From: Escherichia coli
GTDB lineage: Bacteria; Pseudomonadota; Gammaproteobacteria; Enterobacterales; Enterobacteriaceae
Direction: 5' to 3' (one strand)
NCBI RefSeq assembly: GCF_002854065.1
Contig: NZ_CP024147.1
DNA: 64,000 nucleotides
The translations under genes were made by a program, and so were the position numbers. The notes under the pieces are model-generated. The model worked only from the letters and a program-made list of their open reading frames with translations. It was not told where the DNA came from and ran no database searches. Positions 18,808 through 19,260 of the stretch are shown in pieces. Position 1 is the stretch's first letter. Each line of letters starts with the position of its first letter.

Positions 18808-18920
18808 ACTTAATAACTTCTTACAAAGTCTATTATTAATACCGTAGATATTCATCTTACCCTGTGCACCAAAAGCAAAAACTTATCGACGCGGGTTTGA
18901 AACTGATGGCAACCGCAAAA

Positions 18921-19023
18921 ATGCCTGATGCGCTACGCTTATCAGGCCTACGCCATCTCTGCAATATATTGAATTTGCGTGCTTTTGTAGGCAGGATAAG
19001 GCGTTCACGCCGCATCCGGCATG
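18921..19023. repeat. REP elements (BIME-like)
   Basis: ATGCCTGATGCGCTACGCTTATCAGGCCTAC and GTAGGCAGGATAAGGCGTTCACGCCGCATCCGGCATG in opposite orientations. Confidence 0.65.
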
Positions 19024-19043
19024 AATAAAGCGCACTCAACAGT

Positions 19044-19260
19044 CTGAAACCCGCCGGAACGGTTTATTACGTACATCAGGTGAAACTGACCGATAAGCCG
19101 CTTTCTTTTGGGTCTAGCGTCGTGGACAGTCATTCATCTTTCCGCCCCTCCAAAAGCAAAAACCCGCCGAAGCGGGTTTTTACGTAAATCAGGTGAAACT
19201 GACCGATAAGCCGGGTTCTGTCGTGGACAGTCATTCATCTAGGCCAGCAATCGCTCACTG
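19044..19260. repeat. Tandem ~105-bp direct repeat of the rnpB 3-prime end plus terminator
   Basis: Unit 19044..19150 and unit 19151..19257 align at roughly 85% identity (AAACCCGCC...TACGTA.ATCAGGTGAAACTGACCGATAAGCCG...TCGTGGACAGTCATTCATCT); a degenerate partial copy lies near 18860..18900. Confidence 0.7.

Follow-up and report, generated by a model that had tools for sequence, protein, structure and literature searches.

The DNA analysed here, a 64,000-nt stretch of Escherichia coli (the window), very probably contains a short allele of a tandem array that lies 3' of the RNase P RNA gene, rnpB. The repeat unit is a pseudo-3' end of rnpB (the J18/2-P2-P4-P1 3' strands) followed by the rnpB terminator and a spacer. 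The array would have originated by tandem duplication in an ancestor of enteric bacteria, and whole 113-bp units would have been gained or lost since then by unequal homologous recombination, or by replication slippage, between the units. Direct repeats of about 100 bp are a usual basis for inferring gain and loss by these two routes. The same exchanges are expected to homogenise the array with its gene-proximal unit, that is, to cause concerted evolution. In this strain the array seems to have contracted to the rnpB 3' end with its terminator (T1), one terminator-decayed unit, a REP pair and a tail remnant (Table 1).

The gene itself is identified by a full-length match to the class A bacterial RNase P RNA model, RNaseP_bact_a (318.6 bits, model positions 1-367 of 367), and the same nucleotides are annotated as rnpB by RefSeq in strain CUWW06, to which a 1-kb region of the window is 100% identical. 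As rnpB is encoded by the minus strand, coordinates fall in the 'downstream' direction, which agrees with the assumption of an earlier note on this DNA made from its letters alone. A promoter-like site stops 8 nt before rnpB begins, as judged from the sequence with the Rfam 5' end as reference, and garK lies beyond it. On the other side is yhaC, which is convergent with rnpB and is situated in an AT-rich stretch (GC 0.30-0.38 in the composition profile). RefSeq annotates nothing in the yhaC-rnpB interval. By BLAST, virtually all E. coli have the 1-kb region, situated between garK/rnpB and yhaC.

Table 1. Features of the rnpB-yhaC region, with coordinates in the window.
Feature	Coordinates	Strand	Basis
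rnpB, RNase P RNA (M1 RNA), 377 nt	19191..19567	minus	Rfam RF00010
Promoter-like site of rnpB, GTGACA-17 nt-TATACT	19575..19603	minus	consensus scan, 10/12 matches
Repeat unit 1, 101 nt	19140..19240 (rnpB sense 19240->19140)	minus	repeat search, alignment
T1, intact intrinsic terminator as predicted, AAAAACCCGC-TTCG-GCGGGTTTTT	19158..19181 (19181->19158)	minus	folding
Repeat unit 2, pseudo-3' end of rnpB	19047..19139 (rnpB sense 19139->19047)	minus	repeat search, alignment
REP pair, inverted orientation (REP 19020-18987 + 18951-18922)	18922..19020		read from sequence
Tail remnant of a unit, 48 nt, CAGTTTCAAACCCGCGTCGATAAGTTTTTGCTTTTGGTGCACAGGGTA	18858..18905	minus	repeat search, folding
Truncated head of a further unit, AGATGAAT, 8 nt	18850..18857	minus	beside yhaC stop
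yhaC, YhaC family protein, 395 aa	17620..18807	plus	ORF list, RefSeq annotation of identical locus

Unit 1 starts within rnpB and consists of the last 50 nt of M1 RNA, a 9-nt 3' trailer, T1 and the spacer GCTTTTGGAGGGGCGGAA. Its rnpB part covers J18/2 and the 3' strands of P2, P4 and P1. Unit 2 abuts unit 1 directly, head-to-tail, beginning with an exact 21-nt copy of AGATGAATGACTGTCCACGAC. There follow 12 inserted nucleotides (GCTAGACCCAAA, positions 19118-19107), an unchanged copy of CGGCTTATCGGTCAGTTTCACCTGAT and a decayed terminator (19068-19047) without a U-tract; the P2 and P1 3' strands are retained as exact copies. In a global alignment the two units are identical in 83 of 100 columns (83%), apart from the 12-nt insertion. 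The repeat search finds a 60-nt pair (19047-19106 and 19160-19219, 88% identity) at a spacing of 113 and a 21-nt exact pair (19119-19139 and 19220-19240) at a spacing of 101, the two spacings being different because of the 12-nt indel. Without gaps, the highest direct-repeat score is 39 (offset 113), compared to 9.2 +/- 1.0 in 200 dinucleotide shuffles, the maximum of which is 14. The 23-nt P4/P1 motif occurs twice in the window, with 0 occurrences expected. The array is not reported in the window by Tandem Repeats Finder, presumably a limit of sensitivity, there being fewer than two good copies, which differ by an indel.

The REP pair stands between unit 2 and the tail remnant. The spacer of the pair resembles an IHF site, as in a BIME/RIP-type element, and the pair gives weak Rfam matches to the REP-derived families naRNA4 and ES036. 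A 1-kb query that includes the REPs matches 35 places in the median E. coli genome. In the tail remnant the left terminator arm is retained and the right arm is decayed; positions 18869-18898 match 19150-19179 at 83%, and 18850-18861 match 19132-19143 at 92%. In single-copy E. coli alleles the tail, TTTTTGCTTTTGGTGCACAGGGTA, comes directly 3' of T1, and its place immediately after the rnpB terminator there indicates that the remnant is the distal end of the array. The truncated head is at the distal edge of the array and is shared by every sampled E. coli allele, even those with a single copy. Microhomology provided by this 8-mer in the single-copy alleles was considered as a seed of the duplication, and was rejected because other Escherichia, Salmonella and Citrobacter share the insertion-bearing units. 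More plausibly, the 8-mer is what remains of a truncated unit.

These results agree with the main claim of the earlier note, namely, a tandem repeat copying the rnpB 3' end and its terminator, with a degenerate partial copy further on. The sizes given there require correction: the part taken from rnpB measures 50 nt (not about 45), and the units 101 and 113 nt (not about 105). The concern that the repeat could be an alignment artefact of REP elements can be set aside, the REPs being outside both good copies.

On the minus strand T1 folds with -22.4 kcal/mol (z -4.28) and is followed by the U-tract UUUUUGCUUUU, the hairpin beginning 10 nt past the mature 3' end of rnpB. It is a GC hairpin with A-run and T-run flanks and is symmetric, so that the plus strand folds also (-17.2 kcal/mol, z -2.9, then UUUUU). 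A simple terminator scan did not pick up T1, although folding shows it clearly; probably the A/T arms were absorbed into the stem. The equivalent position of unit 2 folds with -7.2 kcal/mol (z +0.9), no better than shuffles, and CAGACUG comes next instead of a U-run. Folding of the tail remnant found no hairpin. With neither hairpin nor U-tract in unit 2, only T1 should be able to terminate, and the array in the window is predicted to contain one intact terminator, not several. The terminator of the last K-12 unit is decayed like that of unit 2. Transcription of rnpB would end at T1, about 33 nt beyond the mature end, and since T1 is symmetric it would probably also stop convergent transcription from yhaC. 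The efficiency of T1, its bidirectional action and any fail-safe role are deduced from sequence and folding.

The rnpB precursor is trimmed by RNase E and 3' exonucleases. Here the mature 3' end would be made from the T1-terminated precursor, upstream of all of unit 2, and nothing in unit 2 appears to be positioned to influence the maturation of that precursor. The suggestion that extra terminators affect 3' processing does not apply to this strain, in which only T1 folds as a terminator. RNase E participates in M1 RNA maturation (PMC11251521), and a plasmid-borne rnpB with the foreign leuU terminator still supplied M1 RNA (PMC7049720). Unit 2 and the remnant would be inert DNA in this strain. 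The intact extra hairpins of other strains and species are most likely fail-safe terminators for read-through, as far as their predicted structures go.

The array is longer in K-12 MG1655, where unit 1 (101 nt) is followed by two intact 113-bp units, a decayed last unit, the REP pair and the remnant. The gene order garK-rnpB-array-REP-yhaC is common to K-12 and the window. The window corresponds to K-12 minus two 113-bp units (226 bp), with an intergenic distance of 383 versus 613 bp, and its unit 2 is orthologous to the last K-12 unit. The locus, the unit and the register are the same (near-identical units, spacings 101 and 113), with a few point changes that include TAT->TAG in the insertion. 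However, K-12 has four heads, and several terminator hairpins follow one another there, whereas the window has two heads and a remnant, and a working terminator is predicted in unit 1 only. Reed and Altman, in PNAS in 1983, reportedly found a 113-bp repeat in about 3.5 copies in the 3' flank of K-12 rnpB. We take the array of the window, at about 1.9 units rather than about 3.5 copies, to be this repeat. The earlier note mentioned repeats reported downstream of rnpB in E. coli, and the K-12 array at the orthologous site, with two more 113-bp units, is in keeping with that statement.

The number of units varies among strains, as the earlier note had surmised. Eleven E. coli alleles were read directly for head count. 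One head is present in STEC434 and GPEC1031 (in the latter yhaBC is also largely deleted), two in the window, CUWW06, ECCRA-119 and W619, three in A29 and PK5086, four in K-12, TW10590 and BS15R-A, and five in O104:H4. In W619 the REP pair is absent and a complete second unit is found instead. A single-unit BLAST query, the matches of which are confined to the rnpB flank, hits 5,398 of 5,426 E. coli genomes, at 1 to 9 places each (median 2), and in K-12-type genomes the 4 places are the 4 units. This census is approximate, as it undercounts alleles with a type II gene-proximal terminator; ECCRA-119, for example, gives 1 BLAST place, yet has 2 units. An evenly spaced sample of 60 E. coli genomes, searched with a REP-free query, provides rough shares: about 27% single-copy, about 27% two-unit and about 42% with three or more units. 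The exact window allele takes only the top rank of the 60-genome sample and accounts for less than about 1.5% of genomes, a share with which the 65 records at least 99% identical to the 1-kb query are consistent. The rnpB-attached terminator is of type I (CCCGC-TTCG-GCGGG) in K-12 and the window, and of the longer type II (CCCGCCAG-CGTAAA-CCGGCGGG) in ECCRA-119, and type II is found in unit 2 of A29 and W619. That the positions of the two types vary between strains indicates exchange of whole units. The array has, in short, already been described for E. coli, and the window is a rare, contracted allele of it.

Similar arrays are found outside E. coli. One genome per species was scanned with an exact 34-nt pattern of the rnpB 3' end, which gave at least 120 loci; 106 of these, listed with at least 400 nt downstream of rnpB, were used for unit counts. 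Among the matches listed, 34 of the 106 species loci have two to six copies at periods of 96-134 bp, and 72 have no extra units. Among the Enterobacteriaceae and close relatives, repeats are found in Escherichia, Citrobacter, Klebsiella, Kosakonia, Cedecea, Phytobacter, Buttiauxella, Atlantibacter, Lelliottia, Superficieibacter and several strains labelled Enterobacter, and among the Erwiniaceae in Pantoea, Izhakiella, Erwinia and Winslowiella. Salmonella enterica Kentucky has two units, seen in an unverified 2.5-kb host fragment that was deposited as 'Salmonella phage S.Kent 1-2-1'. The insertion segment of Kentucky is the same as that of K-12 and other Escherichia, the copy in the window being different at one base. 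In S. enterica arizonae, diarizonae and houtenae a single copy is present. In the non-gene units of the loci listed, the rnpB segment GACAGAAC is replaced, with one exception, by a segment of 19-21 nt whose ends (CGCT.T ... AAAGAA) are nearly invariant and whose middle is variable. That exception comes from Atlantibacter sp. RC6: its second unit is without the insertion and looks like a fresh duplication. The sharing of the replacement segment argues for a single ancient duplication and against many independent events.

The relation of the units to rnpB was compared in 37 multi-copy species loci. At nine variable positions of the P1 end, the units differ from their own rnpB at 0.87 positions and from the rnpB of other genera at 3.06. 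The identity of the tail-terminator-spacer part is 0.90 within a genome, 0.65 between genera and 0.50 when shuffled. Among internal units, 28 of 32 retain a hairpin with a T-run, as do 22 of 37 last units. Identity between genera amounts to 95% for the unit head and 87% for the core. Most of the breadth and apparent age of the units across enteric genera, though not clearly all, is accounted for by their concerted evolution with an essential gene. The persistence of the units, with their shared insertion, in two families of Enterobacterales is somewhat more than a purely neutral repeat predicts. There may also be constraint on the units themselves, as conversion from rnpB cannot supply the near-invariant positions that rnpB does not have (CGCT.T and the G of GCGGCTTA). 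The units appear dispensable, about 27-30% of E. coli genomes being without a second one. The presence of repeats shows no association with the orientation of the next long ORF, as judged from crude stop-to-stop ORFs: that ORF is co-directional in 16 and convergent in 7 multi-copy loci, versus 31 and 14 single-copy loci.

Candidate functions and origins of ALTERNATIVES were tested under four heads: coding, structured RNA, integrative element and insulation by gene orientation. One alternative is that selection maintains the insertion-bearing pseudo-3'-end unit as a functional element in Enterobacterales, and that the window contains a half-decayed copy of this unit; it could serve as an RtT-like small RNA, or as a read-through RNA that pairs with the M1 5' strand of P1/P2. 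Units of the same architecture in 34 of the 106 listed species loci, across Enterobacteriaceae and Erwiniaceae, speak for it, as do the identical insertion segments of Kentucky and K-12, the conserved head and core with near-invariant positions absent from rnpB, the hairpins kept by most internal units and the exact P2 and P1 3' strands in unit 2 of the window. However, gene conversion from a strongly selected rnpB predicts the same conservation of head and core, and the units do track their own rnpB. An alignment of head, insertion and core from 29 distinct units gives -4.64 kcal/mol and 0 compensatory pairs in RNAalifold, and the reading as a structured non-coding RNA outside the terminator gained no support, no pair having double changes. 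Rfam family matches are limited to rnpB, and a promoter scan finds none evident inside a unit. The units are also missing from about 27-30% of E. coli genomes, from 72 of the 106 listed species loci and from S. enterica arizonae, diarizonae and houtenae, and their presence is uncorrelated with the orientation of the next gene. Such a selected element is, on balance, unlikely. A broader form of it, in which the pseudo-3'-end unit with its insertion is an ancient selected element after rnpB in Enterobacteriaceae and Erwiniaceae with roles beyond fail-safe termination, is doubtful as well, if a little less so. There the unit may give an RtT-like processed RNA, be a partner of the M1 5' strand in read-through, or be the fossil of a longer J2/4. 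The unit-specific 12-nt insertion sits between the P2 and P4 3' strands, and the Rfam class A model has 12 extra columns at precisely the place where the units exceed E. coli rnpB in length.

A small basic peptide encoded by the units is very improbable. ORFs are said to have been noted when the K-12 repeats were first sequenced, and K-12 does have a GGAGG 9 nt upstream of the ATG in AGATGAATG, and a 38-codon ORF whose end overlaps the next unit (ATGA). Units 2 and 3 of K-12 have 38-codon ORFs in two frames each, preceded by GGAGGGG, and in one Citrobacter a period of 105, a multiple of 3, creates a long read-through ORF. Against these stand the frame and the length, neither of which is conserved: the ATG-AAT-GAC frame of the window ends at TAG (19116-19114) after 7 codons, 21 of 48 units of other species stop after 9 codons, and ORF lengths are scattered in both frames. 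Indels in the insertion shift the frame between genera, and periods are mostly not multiples of 3. The ORFs sit behind a strong terminator, have no Pfam match and correspond to nothing annotated by RefSeq between yhaC and rnpB, and a small-protein gene was rejected on the lack of conserved frame and length and of a Pfam match. Integrative elements target the 3' ends of tRNA and tmRNA genes, and the copies could in principle be attachment-site duplications left by elements that targeted the rnpB 3' end. They are 3'-end fragments of a stable-RNA gene, an AT-rich and variably present yhaB-yhaC stretch lies just past the array, and several arrays stop right after the P1 3' strand. Yet the units are regular and abut head-to-tail, at 96-134 bp, each with its own terminator and with nothing between them. 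No phage record was found to contain the unit, the 'phage' matches (including 'Salmonella phage S.Kent 1-2-1') being host fragments; no integrase is annotated beside the array in the E. coli loci examined, and IS621 of O104:H4 is located in the REP, not in a unit. The phage or integrative-element origin was rejected on these abutting units and the unverified status of the Kentucky record, and it deserves even less credence than the peptide. Lastly, a chance match or a by-product of REP, to which the REPs at 19020-18922 and the silence of Tandem Repeats Finder might point, can be given practically no weight: the direct-repeat score is far above the shuffle maximum, the P4/P1 motif is found twice against an expectation of 0, both good copies are outside the REPs, and the same units occur in genomes and alleles without a REP at this place. 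A contracted allele of the rnpB array remains the preferred reading of the window.

The organisation of the array has parallels in known systems. The tyrT operon of E. coli has units of 178 bp in which the end of the tRNA-Tyr gene recurs. The tyrT locus and rttR have been described (bioRxiv 10.1101/2024.07.17.603846). Like the array of the window, the tyrT repeats (rtT RNA, tpr) comprise a stable-RNA gene and head-to-tail units that recopy its 3' end; as in the rnpB array, copy number varies and small basic ORFs have been noted in the units. However, the gene is different and the sequence unrelated, so that the likeness is in organisation only. In addition, the tyrT units yield a documented processed RNA (rtT), whereas for the rnpB units no RNA product is known or supported. 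The RtT RNA family, presumably Rfam RF00391, gave no match at E<=1 in 17000-21000 and none at the gathering score in the whole window. Tandem, fail-safe and bidirectional intrinsic terminators occur after highly expressed stable-RNA operons, and K-12 and many other species likewise have several successive hairpins after rnpB. In the rnpB array, however, the extra hairpins stem from the recopying of part of the gene, and the second one is, by folding, dead in the strain of the window. REP/BIME (RIP) palindromes, of which one pair is inside the array, are imperfect palindromes of about 35 nt dispersed at hundreds of genomic sites, in contrast to the rnpB units, which are direct repeats of about 100 nt unique to the rnpB flank.

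For E. coli, the window adds a further copy-number allele to a repeat that has been known for some forty years, the extra copy being one that, as folded, cannot terminate here. Possible novelty is limited to how widespread, and seemingly how old, the insertion-bearing units are among enteric genera; the conservation of these units across genera was not found described in the literature searched, which covers few older papers. For annotation, the units are partial look-alikes of rnpB that can seed false partial RNase P matches, mis-assemblies and PCR length polymorphisms. The insertion-bearing units raise the question whether stacked terminators after stable-RNA genes are selected. Together, rnpB and its flanking pseudo-copies constitute a compact natural system for gene conversion with an essential RNA gene.

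Tandem units that each carry a pseudo-3′ end of rnpB followed by a terminator are present 3′ of the gene at 34 of the 106 Enterobacterales species loci (one genome per species) among the matches listed. The multi-copy loci among these matches have 2-6 units at a period of 96-134 bp, and they include Citrobacter sp. Res13, K. pneumoniae ATCC 13883, Kosakonia pseudosacchari, Izhakiella, and Pantoea allii. Also among the matches listed, the units of multi-copy loci share the unit-specific insertion, which is absent from rnpB itself, and are homogenised with the rnpB of their own genome. 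The second unit of Atlantibacter sp. RC6 does not have the insertion and carries a copy of the true rnpB J2/4 (GACAGAAC); it has the look of a unit that was duplicated recently and independently, or converted from the gene.

Within E. coli, two types of terminator are attached to rnpB itself: one is a short hairpin with a TTCG loop (window 19158-19181), the other a longer CCCGCCAG...CCGGCGGG hairpin (ECCRA-119 unit 1). The long form is gene-proximal in E. albertii, E. whittamii, and Salmonella Kentucky. In Salmonella enterica subsp. arizonae, about 25 nt (GCGCTGAGGGATCCCCAGTAATGGGCGGG) apparently interrupt the rnpB terminator hairpin, and the usual T-run is missing.

The REP pair that lies inside the array drew two sub-threshold Rfam matches, ES036 and naRNA4, both of which are REP-derived families. 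Elsewhere in the window, three RNA elements reached the Rfam gathering score (Table). REP sequences are a known target of IS621, and in E. coli O104:H4 FDAARGOS_348 an IS110-like IS621 lies in the REP pair, just past a five-unit array.

Table. RNA elements of the window and the IS621 of E. coli O104:H4
Feature	Position	Strand	Remark
ES036 (CssrF)	18944-18986	-	Rfam, sub-threshold; REP pair inside array
naRNA4 (CssrE)	18990-19031	+	Rfam, sub-threshold; REP pair inside array
SraG sRNA	58700-58871	+	Rfam, gathering score
Ribosomal S15 (rpsO) leader	59101-59215	-	Rfam, gathering score
naRNA4/REP element	60728-60798	-	Rfam, gathering score
IS621, O104:H4 FDAARGOS_348	transposase CDS 1311-1913 of fetched locus		onset ~200 nt into unit 5

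The yhaB-yhaC stretch is AT-rich, with a GC of 0.30-0.44 versus 0.53-0.57 on the rnpB/garK side (window 15000-19000). Most of yhaBC is deleted in GPEC1031, where pseudogene fragments remain between rnpB and tdcR. This was the sole yhaBC-lacking allele fetched, and it represents the matches annotated 'hypothetical protein' in place of yhaC.

Some rnpB matches carry phage or unexpected taxon labels. OR851195.1, 'Salmonella phage S.Kent 1-2-1' (2,507 bp), is a host chromosomal fragment in sequence, from a low-coverage node marked UNVERIFIED_ORG. In two contigs of Acinetobacter phage MD-2021a, the match is to an internal part of rnpB, at 81%. The exact enterobacterial rnpB 34-mer also occurs in 11 listed loci labelled Burkholderiales, Nitrosomonadales, Hydrogenophilales, Porticoccaceae, Pseudomonadales, or Chryseobacterium; these come from both metagenome bins and isolates, and they are probably enteric contigs, either contaminants or wrongly labelled.

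In the Rfam alignment, E. coli rnpB is short of 12 columns of the RF00010 model, exactly between CCAC and GACAGAA (window 19240-19191), and the 12 extra nt of the repeat units fall at this same site. The agreement may be a coincidence, or a hint that an older, longer junction has been preserved in the units.
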